Of a DNA stretch of 64,000 nucleotides, positions 39,738 through 48,828 are shown piece by piece (within the stretch, counting starts at the first letter, position 1; every line of letters begins with the position of its first letter). The translations under genes and the position numbers were made by a program. The stretch lies in the NCBI RefSeq assembly GCF_053078305.1, contig NZ_CP166879.1; one strand, written 5' to 3'. The notes beneath the pieces were generated by a model. The model saw nothing but the letters and a program-made list of their open reading frames with translations. It was not told where the DNA came from and did no database searches.

Positions 39738-40211
39738 TTATTTAAAATTAAAGCCATCCGGATGGTTTTCCAGGCTGCCGGTCAACGCCGCGAACAGCAC
39801 CGTTTTACCATCAATCGAAAGCGCATCGTTCACATTCAACCAGGTGAGTTTCTCTTGCGACGTTTTCTCATCAATAGTCGAGAACAGCCCCGTCATCTGA
39901 TTAGATTTCTCGGACCACATCACAGCGATACGTTGCGAGCCACAGTCATGCGGTTTGCACGCGCTCATCACCTGATACGTCTCTTCTCCCAATGTCACGG
40001 TTTGTGCAGGGGTATAAGTACCGCCTTTCATCACCCAGGCAGGCAGCTTATGCCCTTGCACCATCTGATTAAATGCAGCTTTGGTGGTTTCGCCCTTTGC
40101 AAGGCTGCTAATGGTTAAATCATCCTGCGCCATTGCACTGGTGGCGATGACCAGTGCGGCGACTGTCGTTATTGCCTTAAACATCATTCCTCCCGAGCTT
40201 ATCCTGCCCAT
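39738..40211 (-). CDS. ivy: Inhibitor of vertebrate lysozyme
   Basis: 157 aa ORF with signal peptide, MGRISSGGMMFKAITTVAALVIATSAMAQ... Confidence 0.9.
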   Translation of the reverse strand: MGRISSGGMMFKAITTVAALVIATSAMAQDDLTISSLAKGETTKAAFNQMVQGHKLPAWVMKGGTYTPAQTVTLGEETYQVMSACKPHDCGSQRIAVMWSEKSNQMTGLFSTIDEKTSQEKLTWLNVNDALSIDGKTVLFAALTGSLENHPDGFNFK

Positions 40212-40364
40212 GTAATTAACCTCCTAAAGCCTGGCGATAACACGATAATTTGCAAATCAGATATTTCCAATATCAGCATTTGTTATCAATTTATTCTGCG
40301 CTAAGGCAACTGCCTGATAAGGTGTTAAAGTTATAAAACCCTTCGCATAAAGGAGTTGTACACC

Positions 40365-41135
40365 GTGCCTGGTTTGAAGATTACGCTTTTGCAGCAACCA
40401 CTGGTGTGGATGGATGGTCCTGCCAACCTGCGTCATTTTGATCGTCAACTGGAAGGTATTACCGGGCGCGATGTGATCGTTCTACCGGAGATGTTTACCA
40501 GCGGCTTTGCCATGGAAGCGGCAGCTTCGTCGCTAGCGCAAGATGACGTAGTGAACTGGATGACAGCTAAAGCGCAGCAGTGCAATGCGCTGATTGCAGG
40601 CAGTGTTGCATTACAAACGGAGTCTGGTTCGGTTAACCGCTTTTTGCTGGTTGAGCCGGGCGGCACGGTACATTTTTATGACAAGCGTCATCTGTTCCGA
40701 ATGGCAGATGAGCATCTGCATTATAAAGCGGGCAATGCGCGAGTGATTGTGGAATGGCGCGGCTGGCGTATTTTGCCGCTGGTGTGCTACGACTTACGTT
40801 TTCCGGTGTGGTCGCGCAATCTCAACGATTACGACCTCGCCCTGTACGTCGCCAACTGGCCTGCTCCGCGCTCTCTGCACTGGCAGGCATTGCTGACGGC
40901 CCGCGCGATTGAGAATCAGGCGTATGTGGCGGGATGTAATCGCGTCGGCAGCGATGGCAACGGCTGCCATTATCGCGGTGACAGCCGGGTGATTAATCCA
41001 CAGGGCGAGATTATCGCTACTGCCGACGCGCATCAGGCAACGCGCATTGATGCGGAGCTGTCGATGATGGCATTGCGGGAATATAGAGAAAAGTTTCCGG
41101 CATGGCAGGATGCGGATGAGTTTAGGTTACGGTGA
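40365..41135 (+). CDS. yafV: Nitrilase-family omega-amidase YafV
   Basis: GTG start at VPGLKITLLQQPLVWMDG (256 aa); carbon-nitrogen hydrolase fold. Confidence 0.88.
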   Translation: MPGLKITLLQQPLVWMDGPANLRHFDRQLEGITGRDVIVLPEMFTSGFAMEAAASSLAQDDVVNWMTAKAQQCNALIAGSVALQTESGSVNRFLLVEPGGTVHFYDKRHLFRMADEHLHYKAGNARVIVEWRGWRILPLVCYDLRFPVWSRNLNDYDLALYVANWPAPRSLHWQALLTARAIENQAYVAGCNRVGSDGNGCHYRGDSRVINPQGEIIATADAHQATRIDAELSMMALREYREKFPAWQDADEFRLR

Positions 41136-41244
41136 GTAGGTGCTGTGTTTAGGGCGGGGAATTCAGAAAGGGATGTTTAGTATGCTGAGCGAGAGTTAAA
41201 TAATAAAAAGCTGGGAAGATTTAATAATCATCCCGGTTTTTATT

Positions 41245-41508
41245 TTATGATTTTTTATTAATTTCACTTATCCATATTTTAAATTCCTTTACTAAATAAG
41301 GATTTTCATTCTTTGATAATATTTCTTGTAGATATCGACAAGTCTCTTTATTTCCCATATCAAGTACGTATAAAGCAATCGAATCAACGATATCATTCTC
41401 AAAAGAATCAATAGCAGCACAATATATGTTTATTAAATCTCGCAAACCATCATTAACATCTACTTCCAGCTTATTTAAAGCTTCATTATATTGATGTCGG
41501 ATACTCAT
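41245..41508 (-). CDS. Hypothetical small protein (87 aa)
   Basis: AT-rich ORF at the edge of the acquired T6SS-distal block. Confidence 0.35.
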   Translation of the reverse strand: MSIRHQYNEALNKLEVDVNDGLRDLINIYCAAIDSFENDIVDSIALYVLDMGNKETCRYLQEILSKNENPYLVKEFKIWISEINKKS

Positions 41509-41556
41509 AAAACCTCACATTAGTTATATAGGAGCCGCCCCGAAAACAGGGCAAGA

Positions 41557-42693
41557 TTACGAAAGCCCGCACCCCGCAAGGACTGACGCGAGGTAGTTTC
41601 TGTCCATGGCTGCTTTTCTCATCTTACGTCTTAGCCCTGCCTTGAATACCTTATCATTCGTCAAAATATTAATAGTGATATGCCTTATCCCTGAAAATAA
41701 TTCTGCTGCATTTCCTCTTCTTATTCTGCAGTCGTCTTCATTCATTATCACGTCCAGGCGCCAGTGCAGCTTATTTTCCACGTGCCAGTGATTCCGGATC
41801 GCTGTGGCGAACTTCTCTGCAGTTAAATCAGCAGAGCTGATATAATATCTGACCGTCATTTCGGGCTCTTTCTTTTGTTCTGCTATTATTGACCGAAAGG
41901 AGACTGCCATGCATAATTTTTTTAGTCCTTTCCATTCAAACGTGAAATCAATAAGTTCATCAGGGACATCGCAAACAATATGAAGACGGGTTTCTTCTCT
42001 GCCGTGACTCTTTTCACTTATTTCGTAACTGTCATGCTTTGGATTATTTAATTCTTTCAGCGGGAATTTTTCCTCAAAGGCTTTATTTAGTCGCCCCTGA
42101 TTTCCCTTTACAGCGAATAAATAATCACCTCCCTGTTTTTGTATCTTTTCTGCAATATCTTTCTGGCAACCCATCGCATCAGTTGTGATGATTTTTCCTT
42201 TAATATCCATCATGTTAAGAAGTTCAGGAATAGCTGTAATCTCATTGGATTTCTCATCCGTCTTGATCTGCCCGAGGACCAGACTGTGCATAGTTGAGAA
42301 CGCACTAATGACATGAATCGCTCCCCTGCAGCGACTCTTGTCATAAGAGTGCCGGAGCGTTGTTCCATCAATTGCAATAACGTCTTTATCATTTGAGGAA
42401 TGGCGGTCACGCATTCAGTTAATAAAGCACTCGTGAAATTTTGTAGGACTGATACAGGATACAACTCTGGCAATGGTATCGTGAACAGGAATACCATTTT
42501 CAAAATCACCATATTGCTTCAAAAAATCGAGATATGTTTCACCAAAATCCTCTATATCTTCCCAACCCTCTGCACCAGAAATGACGGCACAAATAGTCAA
42601 CAGTAGAATATCTGACAATTTATGTTCCACTTTCCAGGCTTGTCTGTAATCGGGGATAATAGAAATATGTTCCATCAACTTTTTAAGTTCCAT
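41557..42693 (-). pseudogene. ISAs1-family (H-repeat-associated) transposase with in-frame TGA
   Basis: ORFs 42415..42693 (92 aa) and 41557..42414 (285 aa) are in the same frame, separated only by TGA at 42417-42415 (...[16 protein letters not shown]...). Confidence 0.7.
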
Positions 42694-43031
42694 TTTGTTC
42701 TCCTTATTTATGCAAGGAGTATTTGATCATGTATAAGCAATAAAAAACAGCTTCAGGTAATGAGGAATATCTCAATTTTTAAACATAAAATGCTAATTAT
42801 TTAGTACAAAAAGTGTACTTCTGATGATCTTTCCCTGACCTGTAACCGCTTTGATTCCAAACGAATATCTTTTAATGACATAATAAATTTATATTCATTC
42901 AGTCTTCAGGTAAACAAAATAGACACTATAAATAATAGTTATCATGAAAATTCATAAACACCATCTATTCTATGAGATGATTATCAGTAATTATGGAAAC
43001 ATCAGCAACATGCTTATGAGATGGTATACAT

Positions 43032-43526
43032 TCACTGAGATATTTCCGTTTCTGTGATTAATACCGGATAAGCATTTAATTGCAAAAGCTGCATCAGATT
43101 ATCGCAGACAACAGGCACCAATAATAATCCATCAGCCTGCTTATTTAATAGTTCCATTCGGTCTGCTGATGCAACATTCACAACCAAACCGAGGGCATTT
43201 AGCGATTTAAACTTCTCCAGGTGTTCACTCATCCATCGCAGAGAAAAAGGATCATCGCCAATTATAAAAACAGGTCCCCAGCCAGTTAATAACTGACGTT
43301 TCGTTACAGTACCGGGATGAAGTTGAGTACATATTACAGGAAATACCCCCTGTCGTGATGGCTCCGATGACGAATGTAATTCAGAAACATTTCCTGTTGT
43401 CAACGAAAGATTAATACCCATGAGTAATCGCGAAACGCTCTCACTTTCCTGGTTAGTTCGCCAAACAAGGGTTGCACTAGTCTGAAAAGAAAAAAATATT
43501 ATTATATATAAACATAGTTTTAACAT
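43032..43526 (-). CDS. Hypothetical secreted protein (164 aa)
   Basis: ORF with N-terminal hydrophobic signal-like segment. Confidence 0.35.
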   Translation of the reverse strand: MLKLCLYIIIFFSFQTSATLVWRTNQESESVSRLLMGINLSLTTGNVSELHSSSEPSRQGVFPVICTQLHPGTVTKRQLLTGWGPVFIIGDDPFSLRWMSEHLEKFKSLNALGLVVNVASADRMELLNKQADGLLLVPVVCDNLMQLLQLNAYPVLITETEISQ

Positions 43527-43564
43527 AATACAATCAGTCCATTTAATTCATGCTATAAAACAAC

Positions 43565-44116
43565 TCATTGATTAATTGGCAAGGTACCATCCCGGTTAAA
43601 ATCATCAAATATTTTATCAATTTCCTTTGCGGTTTCTATATATATAATCTCCTTTGTCCTTGCATTAAATATAGCCCAAGCCTCGGGGTTGGACGTCCCA
43701 CCAAATCTTACAAAAAAATTTGACTTCATGTTTTTATATAAATTAATTTCTGGAAAAGGATCTTCTCCAATATTAGAAATATTAGGGGGTGTAAATTTAT
43801 GTCTTTCAGAAAACTCTTTTGGTAAGATAGTTTCACTGCCATTTATGGTATTTATCCAGAAACTACTACCATTATATTCCAGCATTAAGCGCAGTTTTAA
43901 CGGTATTTTATCTTGTTCTTTAACGACAACTAATACCTTTTTAACAACCTGCTGTGCCGACGGTCCTATTGTATTCCAAAGAGATAGTAAACCACTTTTA
44001 CTATACACAACTTCCTGAATAAAATAAATATTCGTTTTATCACCTTCGATAACATCTTCCATTAATCCCTCCAGACACAACCAAATTACATGGCAAGAGT
44101 ATAATTCTAATGCCAC
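43565..44116 (-). CDS. Hypothetical protein (183 aa), possible orphan immunity protein
   Basis: ORF only; location in the effector/immunity tail. Confidence 0.35.
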   Translation of the reverse strand: MALELYSCHVIWLCLEGLMEDVIEGDKTNIYFIQEVVYSKSGLLSLWNTIGPSAQQVVKKVLVVVKEQDKIPLKLRLMLEYNGSSFWINTINGSETILPKEFSERHKFTPPNISNIGEDPFPEINLYKNMKSNFFVRFGGTSNPEAWAIFNARTKEIIYIETAKEIDKIFDDFNRDGTLPINQ

Positions 44117-44486
44117 TCACCAGATTGAATACTTGACTTAATATTATCACTTGATCAAACAATCATAATGAATTTCATCTTTATTGTCTTTTTAAAAGTG
44201 ATAGCTAAGCTCGTTTTATTCATTAAACCAGATGATGCAATACTTTGGATCAAATAAATATTCCCACTAAGATGAATGTTCATTTTGCTTTCATAAGCCA
44301 TACGCTTGCCCTGCTGCAAGGACTAATCGAAAGTGGAACATTATTTCACGCAGTCATTTACATACGATGGCAAACCGTTTTTATTTGATTGCATCTCCCT
44401 AATCAAATACATATTTATTTCTCTACTACTAACTAGTTCAGCCAGTTATCACATCACATTTGAGCATTATAATTCCCCAAAAACAT

Positions 44487-44900
44487 TCATCTATTAATGG
44501 CGAATGAAATAGATAATGAATTAAAATAATCATCTAGTAAAAATTGTTTGATACCGGGATCATAAGCCCGCATAACAGAGTGTTTTGTTTCCAATAATGG
44601 GATAATAGTATTCACTCGAGGAACTACAGCACCTAAAAATATAATATCATTATTTTTTTGGACTAATAAAACAGGAAGAGTATCAAGATCTACCTCTGAA
44701 ACCATATCAGAATGCCGTTCAATATCCATCCAGATAAAGAAATCGTTTGGATATTTTTCCGATAATGCAATTAATGGATTTTTCCAGTCATTACAATTAT
44801 TGCACCAATCCGCACACAAACAAACAACTAGTTTATTATCATTATTAGCGGAAATAAACTCCCCAATCTGCTGGATATTATCCTCAGGGTAATATATCAT
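44487..44900 (-). CDS. Thioredoxin-like protein with C-x2-C-x-C motif
   Basis: 137 aa; CADWCNNCNDWK motif. Confidence 0.45.
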   Translation of the reverse strand: MIYYPEDNIQQIGEFISANNDNKLVVCLCADWCNNCNDWKNPLIALSEKYPNDFFIWMDIERHSDMVSEVDLDTLPVLLVQKNNDIIFLGAVVPRVNTIIPLLETKHSVMRAYDPGIKQFLLDDYFNSLSISFAINR

Positions 44901-44911
44901 TTCTTTTCCTT

Positions 44912-46147
44912 TTAATAATTAAGCAAATTATCCTTTGGTGAGGTATTCTTGTCCAAATGGAAAAGATGCCATGAAGCAATCCAGCGAACGAGTTGGCTTC
45001 CGTCAGAAAAATTAGTATTACACCAAGATGCAGTCACTGATTTCCCCAGGAACAGTCTTTCCTCATTACGATACTGTTGACACATCGATGTAACTTTATG
45101 AATATCAGGCATTCCTATGCCGGTTCCAAACACATTTAACCGAGAGGTAATCTCAGGCAACTTTTCATCCTTTGCCGGTAATAAATATTCCTTATCATCT
45201 ATATCAATGCCAGTTATCAGACTTACAGCAACAAACGCAATACGAGAAAGCTCTTCTTTTTCCATTAATGAAAGTAATAGAGGTAGAGTTTTTGTATTTG
45301 CATAATGGGCATAAAAAATGATTTGTAAATACTCAGGTAAACCAGAAATAAATGCAAAAGGGTAAGTCAGTTCAGAACAACATTGCCCAAGAAGTCGAAC
45401 TAACATCTCAGTTTGCTGGTTTTTCCTGATACCTTCAATGCCTCTAAGAGGCGGCAGGGTTAAATAATCATCAATCAACAGACATAATGGATTAATCATC
45501 ATTGACTTATCTGATGAAAGCCAACATGCAGCACTAACTGCTGAAAATCTGACTGATAATTCATTGCTACCAAAATATACCGTTAACGCAGGAAGATAGC
45601 TCTGTAATCCAAGTTTGCGAATATAATCCAGCACAGCTACCTTTTCTTGTATATTTCCGTTATCTAGTTTTTTTATCAAAAAATCTTCTGATAAGTGTAA
45701 TTTGCTCTGAGAACAAATATTTAATGCTATCTGAACCTCGGAAGGTATAGAGGAAAGTAAGAATTCATTAACAGTACCATAAACATGTTCTTTAGCTGAA
45801 TGTGATAACGCAGAGACATACCCATTCAACGTTGTATCTGCATATTTAGATACATACGACCAGGTTGCTTTCATCCAGGCAGGATTCTGACACTGATTCG
45901 CCAGAAAACCGCAAACAAACGCTTCTCCCTGAGAGTGCCAGCGTCTCAGTGCCGCATAGCTCTCCTCCCATCCATCATCACCAGCAACATGTAATCCCTC
46001 CAGATTAGCATCAATATATTGATTAAATTGCCTGAGATCGGCGCTTTTAACTAATGGCGAAAATCTGCTTTCTTCTTTCTGAAGCCAGTAAAATGCCGCA
46101 TTCGCGGCATGCTGACGAATAATCGGTTGTATTACCTGATGATTCAT
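44912..46147 (-). CDS. Hypothetical protein (about 411 aa from an internal start; track ORF extends to 46246)
   Basis: Long ORF downstream of the GHH effector; start at MNHQVIQP would abut the upstream stop. Confidence 0.4.
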   Translation of the reverse strand: MNHQVIQPIIRQHAANAAFYWLQKEESRFSPLVKSADLRQFNQYIDANLEGLHVAGDDGWEESYAALRRWHSQGEAFVCGFLANQCQNPAWMKATWSYVSKYADTTLNGYVSALSHSAKEHVYGTVNEFLLSSIPSEVQIALNICSQSKLHLSEDFLIKKLDNGNIQEKVAVLDYIRKLGLQSYLPALTVYFGSNELSVRFSAVSAACWLSSDKSMMINPLCLLIDDYLTLPPLRGIEGIRKNQQTEMLVRLLGQCCSELTYPFAFISGLPEYLQIIFYAHYANTKTLPLLLSLMEKEELSRIAFVAVSLITGIDIDDKEYLLPAKDEKLPEITSRLNVFGTGIGMPDIHKVTSMCQQYRNEERLFLGKSVTASWCNTNFSDGSQLVRWIASWHLFHLDKNTSPKDNLLNY

Positions 46148-46148
46148 A

Positions 46149-47177
46149 CTAGTCTTCTGCCTCATCATCAGTCTCATCATCTGACTGCCATTCAACAGAA
46201 TTAATGAGTAAATGCCATTCCTGTCCGTCGTGCCATGCTGCACCATACATTCCGGCCATTAGCATCACACCATCACCCACTGATAAATGCCCTACCGCTA
46301 CAGCTATTTCAGAAGGAAGATCCACAGGAATTAATGTATCACCATCCAGACACCATAGACCGTAATCAGATGTACACCACACTTTTCCGGCATGCCAGAC
46401 TATATCTTCGAAGGGAAGACTATAACCACCCGCAGAGACTTTTTCCCATTTATTCCCACGGCCTTTAAATAATATACCAGATTGACCACCAATGTAGACA
46501 TAACCATCCCCTGCACAACACACTGTTTCTAGATAGATGTTTGAGGGAAAATTAATTTGCTCCCATTCTGCTCCAGAAAAATGCCAGACATTTCCCTTAC
46601 CGCCGACTACATACAAATCATCATAGGAAAAACCATCTATATCTCTTAGTTTAAATTCATCGCCAAATCTACCTTTTTCTTTTGAGTAATCAAAAACCGG
46701 GAGATTCAAACAGAGTGACTGCCAGTCATTAACTCCGTCTCTGTATCCCACAGAGTTATTGTACCCAACAATATACAGTCTTCCTGAAATATTTTTAATT
46801 TTCGTTATTATATTTCTTAGAGGACCGTCAATTCCGAAAGGAATTTTTTTCTCTCTGCTATCATATTTACAACTACGGGAATAAACATATCCCTCATCAT
46901 CAACACAAACAACTTCGTCATAGCTATTATATGATGCACTACCTATATATAACTGCCCCATGTTTTTAAGTGGCTGAAGTGATATACAATCGTCTGGGCT
47001 ACCATCTAAATAGATCCCGACTTCACCTTTAGTTACTGTATTTTCATCAATAACACTTGCTTTTCGACTCTCTTTAATATTACGAACAGAAAAATGGAAA
47101 AAATCCTTATTTCTTACAGTACAATCCTTAATATACCATTTTTTAAAAATTGCAATGTTCTTATCAGTAATTTTCAT
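46149..47177 (-). CDS. Candidate immunity protein with repeated G/W-rich beta-propeller-like units
   Basis: Directly downstream of the GHH-nuclease effector; repeated ...G.....W... units; start taken at MKITDKNIAIFKKW. Confidence 0.4.
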   Translation of the reverse strand: MKITDKNIAIFKKWYIKDCTVRNKDFFHFSVRNIKESRKASVIDENTVTKGEVGIYLDGSPDDCISLQPLKNMGQLYIGSASYNSYDEVVCVDDEGYVYSRSCKYDSREKKIPFGIDGPLRNIITKIKNISGRLYIVGYNNSVGYRDGVNDWQSLCLNLPVFDYSKEKGRFGDEFKLRDIDGFSYDDLYVVGGKGNVWHFSGAEWEQINFPSNIYLETVCCAGDGYVYIGGQSGILFKGRGNKWEKVSAGGYSLPFEDIVWHAGKVWCTSDYGLWCLDGDTLIPVDLPSEIAVAVGHLSVGDGVMLMAGMYGAAWHDGQEWHLLINSVEWQSDDETDDEAED

Positions 47178-47184
47178 ATAAATA

Positions 47185-48828
47185 TTACCTCTTATTACCT
47201 GTAGGTGTTTCAGTATTCTGAGAATCAACTTCATCTTCAGTAAATGCTTTTCCAGCTACCGCTGGCATATCATCATCGCAATTCTTATAATAATTATCCA
47301 GTTGTTTTCTAAGGCAGGCTCTGCTGCATCTTGATTCCGGGAATGTTCGTTCAAATCCATCCAGGGCAATTTCTTTGGCATCTTCGTAATCAATTTTATC
47401 TTTATCGCTGAACCAGCCACTTTTCTTATAAGCTTTGATATCTTTGATCATCTCATCATGCATTTTGCCATGCGTTCCGTTTCCATTATTTGTGCCCTCT
47501 ACACAAACTGTCGGTGCCCCGCCTTTCGAATAACCACTGCAATGTCCTTTAGCCATTTCATCAGGAATAAGATGGTGGCCTGTCTGTCCGGGACAGCACC
47601 CTTTTCCAGTTTCGATACTCTTTTTGGCTCCGGTCTTATTATAATCAACGAGAAGGCATCGTCTTGCACGCGTACAGGGATTTATTCTCGCCAGCGCCCC
47701 CATTCCTGTTGCCATCATTTGAGATGGCGTCATATTTTTTAGCGTATTTTCCAGTTCAGCTTTGGCCTGTTTGACTAAAGATAAAATATCTTTTATCTCA
47801 TCTAATTTTTTATACGCTTCAATACCTAACTTGGCTGTATCATAAGCTGTACCAATTGCATCACAGACGTTCCATATTGTTGCAATTGTCTCGGTTACAA
47901 CTGCTCCAACGCCAGCAGCCGTAGCACCTATCGTACCCACGGCCCACCTTCCAGCCGCGTGTGCTGCTAGTTTTTCTGCTTTATGCAGAGCAGCAGTTTG
48001 TGCTTTATCAATAATTTCTTGTTTTAGTTGCTCAAGCATTGGCTCTATTAGTGAAGCCACTTTTTTATTAAAATCCTCCGTCAGTTCTTTCAATAATTTG
48101 TTATACTCCTCCAGGCCAAAACGTGGCTTAATCCACAAACCAGTACAATGAGAAAAAATCCATTCATTCTCCGGAGTTTTTAGTTTAGCGTATGTATTTC
48201 TGACTTTATCATCCAGCGTTTCCAGTTTCCCACCAATTTCTTTACCCATTAATTTCATGAAGTTTTTATTTTTTACATGATTCCTTCTGTTTTCCTCTTT
48301 CTTTTTTTCATCTTCATCATCATTTTTGTTATCTTCATCCGGTTTACATGCCTTCCTTATCCGATCTTCTTCCTTTTTACACTGTACAGGCATATCAAGA
48401 GTATCCTTATATGTGCCTGTAATAGTATTTCCTGGCTCCGAACCATGATTGTGCGTCATTAAATCTTCATGGCGTGCCACACACTTCCCTTCGAATTTTA
48501 CATTTGGCGACCATGATTTAAAGTAGGCTTTTCCTTTAATGACGCCGGTAATTACACCTTTGGGTTGGGATTGTGTAGCGGGTTCATCTCCGGTACTGGT
48601 TGAAAAAAAGGAAATATCTTCTTTAGCCACCATCGAATTGCATATGAATACGGTTATGGTTCCGTCCTTCATCGTTGAGGCATATGCAGTATTTGGATAA
48701 GGTACCACTATCGGGCCAGCCGGAGGAGAAGGCGGTGTCCAGCACGGATCGGGAAACACCGCTTTTGACACGCCGTCCGATGCCTTGGAGCTTGCCTCCC
48801 GGCTATTGATATAAACTTGAGTTTCCAT
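47185..48828 (-). CDS. T6SS effector: N-terminal DUF4150 (PAAR-like) domain, C-terminal HNH/EndoVII-fold GHH nuclease toxin domain
   Basis: 547 aa; N-terminal ...DPCWTPPSPPAGPIVVPYPNTAYAS...; Lys/Glu/Asp-rich linker; C-terminal CCPGQTGHHLIPDE. Confidence 0.7.
   Translation of the reverse strand: METQVYINSREASSKASDGVSKAVFPDPCWTPPSPPAGPIVVPYPNTAYASTMKDGTITVFICNSMVAKEDISFFSTSTGDEPATQSQPKGVITGVIKGKAYFKSWSPNVKFEGKCVARHEDLMTHNHGSEPGNTITGTYKDTLDMPVQCKKEEDRIRKACKPDEDNKNDDEDEKKKEENRRNHVKNKNFMKLMGKEIGGKLETLDDKVRNTYAKLKTPENEWIFSHCTGLWIKPRFGLEEYNKLLKELTEDFNKKVASLIEPMLEQLKQEIIDKAQTAALHKAEKLAAHAAGRWAVGTIGATAAGVGAVVTETIATIWNVCDAIGTAYDTAKLGIEAYKKLDEIKDILSLVKQAKAELENTLKNMTPSQMMATGMGALARINPCTRARRCLLVDYNKTGAKKSIETGKGCCPGQTGHHLIPDEMAKGHCSGYSKGGAPTVCVEGTNNGNGTHGKMHDEMIKDIKAYKKSGWFSDKDKIDYEDAKEIALDGFERTFPESRCSRACLRKQLDNYYKNCDDDMPAVAGKAFTEDEVDSQNTETPTGNKR

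Follow-up and report, generated by a model that had tools for sequence, protein, structure and literature searches.

A structurally complete ISEc1 copy with a nonsense codon in its transposase gene at the yafV end of an Escherichia coli T6SS island

The window analysed here is a stretch of 64,000 nucleotides from contig NZ_CP166879.1 (assembly GCF_053078305.1). Its positions 41547–42837, on the minus strand, hold what we read, with a probability of about 0.93, as a structurally complete ISEc1 insertion sequence whose sole transposase gene has been turned into a pseudogene by a nonsense mutation, W93*. The feature is an ordinary one and already known as an annotated IS pseudogene: at a 100%-identical locus (E. 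coli ES5, NZ_CP133871.1, and others), RefSeq carries a 1137-nt feature named "ISAs1 family transposase", which is marked as pseudo with the remark "internal stop". Translation from the native start would stop after the 92-residue N-terminal domain and leave the DDE catalytic domain (codons 94–378) unlinked, so that the element would make no full-length transposase of its own and would be non-autonomous. With its terminal repeats intact, it might in principle still be mobilised in trans by an intact ISEc1 elsewhere in the genome. Originally, the element would have interrupted a gene for an Rhs toxin on the yafV side of the aspV–yafV T6SS island, and a later deletion or IS–IS recombination may then have removed the toxin body together with one copy of the target duplication. 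The outcome would be the present arrangement, with an orphan immunity gene on one side of the element and T6SS cargo genes on the other (Table 1).

Table 1. Features in and around the ISEc1 copy, in window coordinates
Feature	Position	Strand	Evidence
Complete ISEc1 (H-repeat) insertion sequence, ISAs1 family, 1291 bp	41547..42837	-	End-to-end BLAST against other copies
Left terminal inverted repeat (IRL), CAGGGAAAGATCA	42825..42837	-	Sequence; no difference from the IRL of the 7 other copies
Right terminal inverted repeat (IRR), reverse complement CAGGGCAAGATTA	41547..41559	-	Sequence; identical in 6/7 other copies, L011 one base off
Shine–Dalgarno-like AAGGAG, 6 nt upstream of the transposase ATG (42693–42691)	42700..42705	-	Sequence; putative function
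Transposase codons 1–92, N-terminal domain DDE_Tnp_1_assoc	42418..42693	-	Pfam PF13808, E 2e-32, residues 8–92; NF033564 positions 1–63
Premature stop TGA = W93*, TGG>TGA, single G>A transition	42415..42417	-	TGG in 7/7 other ISEc1 copies; Trp in 10/10 ISAs1 transposases
Transposase codons 94–378 and natural stop, DDE_Tnp_1 catalytic domain	41557..42414	-	Pfam PF01609, E 3.8e-30, residues 9–250 of the second half; NF033564 positions 67–314
D109	42369–42367	-	Invariant column in alignment A1
Codon 111, ACA = K111T, in the D109-G110-K111 motif	42361..42363	-	Lineage-private among 8 ISEc1 copies; Lys in 10/10 homologs
D172	42180–42178	-	Invariant column in alignment A1
E306	41778–41776	-	Invariant column in alignment A1
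Remnant 3' end of an Rhs C-terminal toxin ORF and spacer to the immunity gene	41509..41546	-	Alignment with Rhs 3' ends
87-aa orphan ORF in transposase orientation, probably an Rhs immunity gene	41245..41508	-	Homolog position in other strains
Non-coding left flank, 194 nt, between the DUF2859 ORF and the left end of the IS	42838–43031		Sensitive blastn
T6SS cargo block upstream of the IS: PAAR-like, WD40/BNR-like, thioredoxin-domain and DUF2859 proteins, and 444-aa and 183-aa proteins without a Pfam match	43032–48828	-	

Anatomy of the element and its transposase gene

BLAST comparison with other ISEc1 copies aligned positions 1–1291 of the element at 94.2–94.5% identity, and the homology ended sharply at both termini. 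Its length of 1291 bp is that of the copies at L003 and L009–L013 (our labels for the loci compared). The two terminal inverted repeats agree with each other at 11 of 13 positions and sit exactly where the homology to the other copies stops, while a repeat search for longer terminal repeats or target-site duplications returned chance-level matches only. Under the usual ISfinder rule, sequences that share more than about 90% nucleotide or 95% amino acid identity are counted as one IS. The window copy has the 1291-bp length and 94.2–95.6% nucleotide identity to copies listed in RefSeq as "ISAs1-like element ISEc1 family transposase", among them ydcC. It also shows the marks of the ISAs1 family, namely the equivalog score, the order of DDE_Tnp_1_assoc followed by DDE_Tnp_1, the acidic residues and the imperfect terminal repeats. 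What it lacks is an uninterrupted transposase ORF across nearly the whole element. Since this ORF is broken by the TGA at codon 93, we classify the element as a pseudogene copy rather than as a functional ISAs1 member.

The initial annotation of this DNA, made from the sequence without database searches, had described two adjacent ORFs in the same frame, separated by nothing other than a TGA at 42417–42415. The ORF list and a one-frame translation bear out these coordinates exactly: a 92-aa ORF (42415..42693) and a 285-aa ORF (41557..42414), both on the minus strand, lie in one frame, and the ATG at 42414–42412 abuts the TGA with a gap of 0. Translated as a single frame, positions 41557–42693 (minus strand) comprise 378 codons with the terminal stop present, without a frameshift, and with an internal stop at codon 93 alone. 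The proposed identity of the product, an ISAs1/H-repeat transposase, was likewise upheld by the Pfam domains and by the NCBIfam equivalog NF033564 ("ISAs1 family transposase"), which the N-terminal half matches with 78.9 bits and the C-terminal half with 306.5 bits. When W93 is restored, the match runs over model positions 1–314 and scores 408 bits, against a cutoff of 70. Because the two ORFs give consecutive matches to one equivalog model, they are pieces of one gene, and their juxtaposition is not a matter of chance. At the gathering threshold, Rfam yielded no structured RNA or recoding signal by the TGA (positions 40000–44500). Recoding of the TGA as selenocysteine was considered and rejected, since homologs carry Trp at this position and neither Cys nor Sec.

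A sense codon, possibly TGG, had been predicted at the site of the stop in intact homologs, and this is what the comparison revealed. The seven other ISEc1 copies aligned (L002, L003, L009–L013) all have TGG at codon 93, six of them in an uninterrupted ORF, and the nucleotide alignment at the lesion reads AAC TGA ATG in the window against AAC TGG ATG in the other copies. Trp also occupies this column in ten of ten distant ISAs1 transposases, which are 32–96% identical and every one of them a single fused protein. These ten homologs, some plasmid-borne and some chromosomal, represent Citrobacter, Leclercia, Klebsiella, Vibrio, Pseudomonas, Rhizobium, Ralstonia, a cyanobacterium and E. coli; the alignment, A1, contains 11 sequences. 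The initial annotation had also named what would speak against it, namely homologs in which the upstream ORF is a separate natural protein. The plasmid records point the other way: in a tblastn search with the fused 378-aa query, at least 80% of the query was covered in one place in 782 of 937 matching records.

In the catalytic half, D109, D172 and E306 fall in invariant columns of A1 and are kept in the window copy. Judging from the Pfam domain, these residues would form the DDE triad, with D109 as a presumed catalytic residue. Two residues after this first invariant Asp, the window copy carries K111T, a change found in all five copies of its lineage that were read; the remaining 11 private missense changes all lie at variable columns. 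K111T is probably a second loss-of-function change, and a copy in which the stop alone had reverted would probably still be impaired. The view that a single nonsense codon inactivated the transposase is therefore correct for lesions that break the ORF, but it is incomplete, since K111T also hits a family-invariant Lys. Moreover, to call the copy "inactivated" takes for granted that intact copies are active, since transposition of ISEc1 (H-rpt) has reportedly never been observed so far (PMC3032704).

Distribution and age of the W93* allele

Of 5426 complete E. coli genomes, 5342 (98%) contain ISEc1-like matches, at a median of five places per genome, and a near-full-length ISEc1 element is found in 4935 E. 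coli genomes. Copies at least 99% identical to the window copy occur in 11 of the 5426 complete genomes, in every case beside yafV; these carriers hold three to six ISEc1 matches each. The next closest copy in any of the 5426 genomes is 95.6% identical. Among the five carrier copies that were read, at most five alignment columns differ across the element (at least 99.8% identity), and all five have the same TGA (the window, which is identical to ES5, and L005–L008). All 11 carriers match an 81-mer with the TGG restored at exactly one mismatch, as expected for TGA, and W93* is fixed in this small E. coli lineage. The restored 81-mer itself has zero exact matches in the 5426 complete genomes.

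Protein records give a similar picture. A search among about 15 billion proteins found the exact half-proteins on 129 contigs each, and the W-restored 378-aa protein was absent by exact search of the same collection. An intact sibling of the window lineage was thus not found by exact 81-mer and exact-protein search, from which one-residue variants would escape. The deposited 285-aa and 92-aa "proteins" are gene-calling artefacts over the nonsense codon, and the correct record is one pseudogene rather than two genes. The W93* allele could also serve to identify the lineage formed by the few carrier strains.

Compared with the seven other copies, the ORF of the window lineage has 33 private substitutions, which comprise 20 synonymous changes, 12 missense changes and the nonsense change. 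The omega of this lineage is about 0.16, while the other seven copies, compared in pairs, give 0.02–0.11; under neutral decay, about 3.8 nonsynonymous changes would be expected per synonymous one. Measured against this neutral expectation, an omega of about 0.16 argues that most of the 4–6% divergence arose under purifying selection, before inactivation. W93* would then be late relative to the divergence of the lineage, yet older than the split of the carrier strains.

Selection can also be viewed across the ISEc1 ORFs as a group (the window, L002, L003 and L009–L013), for which dS ranges from 0.03 to 0.22, with one pair lacking any synonymous difference, and dN/dS from 0.02 to 0.13. Such low dN/dS values mean strong purifying selection on the multi-copy ISEc1, compatible with either continued activity or a host-beneficial role at Rhs loci.

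Flanks of the element and the aspV–yafV island

Perfect 10-bp target duplications flank the ISEc1 copies at five of the seven other loci, L002, L003, L010, L012 and L013 (GCGTTAAACA, GGGGAAATCC, GTCAGTTGAC, GCCCGACATG and GGCAGGTAAC). Found at five distinct sites, they are indirect evidence of past transposition by other ISEc1 copies. Direct inspection of the window copy revealed no target-site duplication; its flanks read GGTTACAGGT and TTTTCGGGGC. A duplication is also missing at L009 and L011. The search for terminal inverted repeats and target duplications that the initial annotation had suggested was thus answered in part: both inverted repeats were found, but the duplication was absent. 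We read this absence as the result of a rearrangement after insertion and not as a case against ISAs1 membership.

On its right flank, the element borders sequence that matches the final ~27 nt both of a full-length Rhs CDS in JNE151685 and of an Rhs-CT fragment in 06-00048, and in both cases the homology starts at the end of the IS. Directly beyond it lies the co-oriented 87-aa ORF. In JNE151685, a homolog of this ORF follows 11 nt downstream of a 4731-nt Rhs CDS, and at L003 a homolog comes after an Rhs-CT fragment; elsewhere, the ORF is thus represented by a co-oriented small ORF directly downstream of an Rhs-CT region. The 87-aa ORF has no Pfam match, and its position suggests that it is probably an Rhs immunity gene. 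Since the right flank consists of an Rhs 3' end and a downstream small ORF, the IS appears to replace the body of an Rhs toxin gene and to leave the orphan gene beside yafV. The missing toxin body and the missing duplication together point to a deletion or IS–IS recombination after the insertion.

In other strains, homologs of the 87-aa ORF sit either immediately behind full-length Rhs genes or behind Rhs-CT fragments that adjoin symE genes. A scan of positions 41100–43100 of the window detected fewer promoter-like sites than shuffled sequences did; from the end of the transposase ORF to the 87-aa ORF, the minus strand has no terminator-like site. Neither result is informative about expression.

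On the other side of the element, the non-coding left flank gave matches by sensitive blastn in the 11 carriers only. With no relatives in E. coli beyond these carriers by the same search, an "empty site" for the left flank could not be reconstructed. Upstream of this flank is an ORF for a DUF2859 "integrating conjugative element protein", which closes the T6SS cargo block and lies downstream of tssB–K, hcp and vgrG. The genes of the cargo block look like effector and accessory candidates. The element had been described as marking the outer edge of the T6SS effector block, and it does lie near that edge; the Rhs toxin 3' end and the orphan gene (41245–41546), however, intervene before the core gene yafV and form the true edge. 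In the E. coli W genome paper, the b0215–b0221 region (aspV–fadE) is listed as an Rhs locus (PMC3032704).

Further changes at this site are seen in other genomes. In two horse isolates (L014, NZ_CP091839.1, 1369–4411), IS1A cuts this ISEc1 copy short at the counterpart of window position 42215. Little is left in these isolates between tRNA-Asp (aspV) and the IS remnant, and the whole T6SS cluster is deleted, apparently in an IS1-mediated event. The yafV end of the island also gathers decayed ISAs1-family elements in other phylogroups (L002, 4247–6622; L015, 1925–2689 and 4029–4223). For example, Z1323PEC0008 has an ISEc1 copy with a Q18* change and a second, frameshifted copy (~66% identical), and in ATCC 11775 one copy has lost an internal part and another is reduced to a remnant of 195 nt (~81% identical).

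Alternative readings and related elements

UGA is the leakiest stop codon in E. coli, and the near-cognate tRNA-Trp inserts Trp, which here is the ancestral residue. The copy might therefore be attenuated rather than dead, with low UGA readthrough by tRNA-Trp providing a little full-length transposase that carries the native residue. The rest of the ORF, which has neither a frameshift nor a second stop, and the two intact inverted repeats would fit such a state. We nevertheless regard it as very unlikely: readthrough is expected to reach the percent level at most, K111T alters a family-invariant Lys two residues past D109, and there is no trace of new copies, as the lineage occupies one locus and its next closest copy is 95.6% identical.

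We give just as little credence to the idea that W93* has been kept for an effect of its own. In one form, the free 92-residue domain would act as a trans repressor of ISEc1 copies; in the other, read-through transcription would express the promoter-less orphan immunity gene 48 nt downstream. If this second form, in which the element serves as an expression cassette, were true, the pseudogene would be retained as protection against a neighbour's Rhs toxin.

A shade less probable again is a functional split, in which the 92-aa and 285-aa products work as a two-protein system through termination–reinitiation at TGAATG, or in which the short protein serves as a trans-inhibitor or regulator. The ATG right after the TGA could indeed allow some re-initiation, the break falls between two Pfam domains so that each half is a complete domain, and the 11 carrier genomes, which come from several hosts and more than one continent, all have the allele unchanged. 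However, this ATG is the native Met94 of every intact copy, and no Shine–Dalgarno sequence precedes it. Each of the 17 intact or diverse homologs in the comparison is a fused protein with Trp at codon 93. With at least 99.8% identity among the carriers, the apparent conservation reflects recent common descent and not selection, and K111T suggests relaxed constraint on the catalytic half. Finally, an error of sequencing or assembly could have put the stop into a gene that is otherwise intact. Nothing more specific than a single-base difference favours this reading, and its probability is practically negligible: the identical TGA appears in complete genomes that different laboratories assembled independently and from different hosts, and both half-proteins have exact matches on 129 contigs each.

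The reading that we prefer, a complete ISEc1 with a transposase gene broken by W93*, makes the locus an example of H-repeat elements wearing down arrays of Rhs toxin and immunity genes at the border of the aspV–yafV T6SS island of E. coli; beyond correct annotation, its importance is little. Its closest known relatives are the ISEc1, or H-repeat (H-rpt), copies of the E. coli Rhs elements (ydcC, yhhI and ybfL), with which it shares the 1291-bp length, the terminal repeats and the association with Rhs and T6SS genes. Relative to these, the window copy is 94–95.6% identical at the nucleotide level and its 378-codon ORF about 95–96% identical at the amino acid level, with 15–19 nonsynonymous differences over the 378 codons. 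Unlike the ISEc1 copies compared, it has both W93* and K111T and is without a 10-bp duplication. Its lineage is divergent and confined to a single locus, with no sibling above 95.6% identity elsewhere in the 5426 genomes.

The decayed yafV-side copies in Z1323PEC0008 and ATCC 11775 share the chromosomal neighbourhood of the window copy and are likewise annotated as pseudogenes in RefSeq, but they arose in independent events. The copy in Z1323PEC0008 is interrupted by a different stop (CAA>TAA at codon 18), retains a perfect 10-bp duplication (GCGTTAAACA) and has a different junction. The remnant in ATCC 11775, only about 81% identical, derives from another ISAs1 member. The yafF gene of K-12 is presumably another decayed ISAs1-family copy beside yafV.

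In E. coli W, H-repeats lie among Rhs C-terminal tips (PMC3032704). Like such orphan Rhs toxin/immunity modules, the 87-aa ORF and the ~27 nt upstream of it consist of an Rhs gene end and a small ORF. Unlike the orphan modules found elsewhere, here the last few toxin codons alone survive, and the end of the IS replaces the rest.
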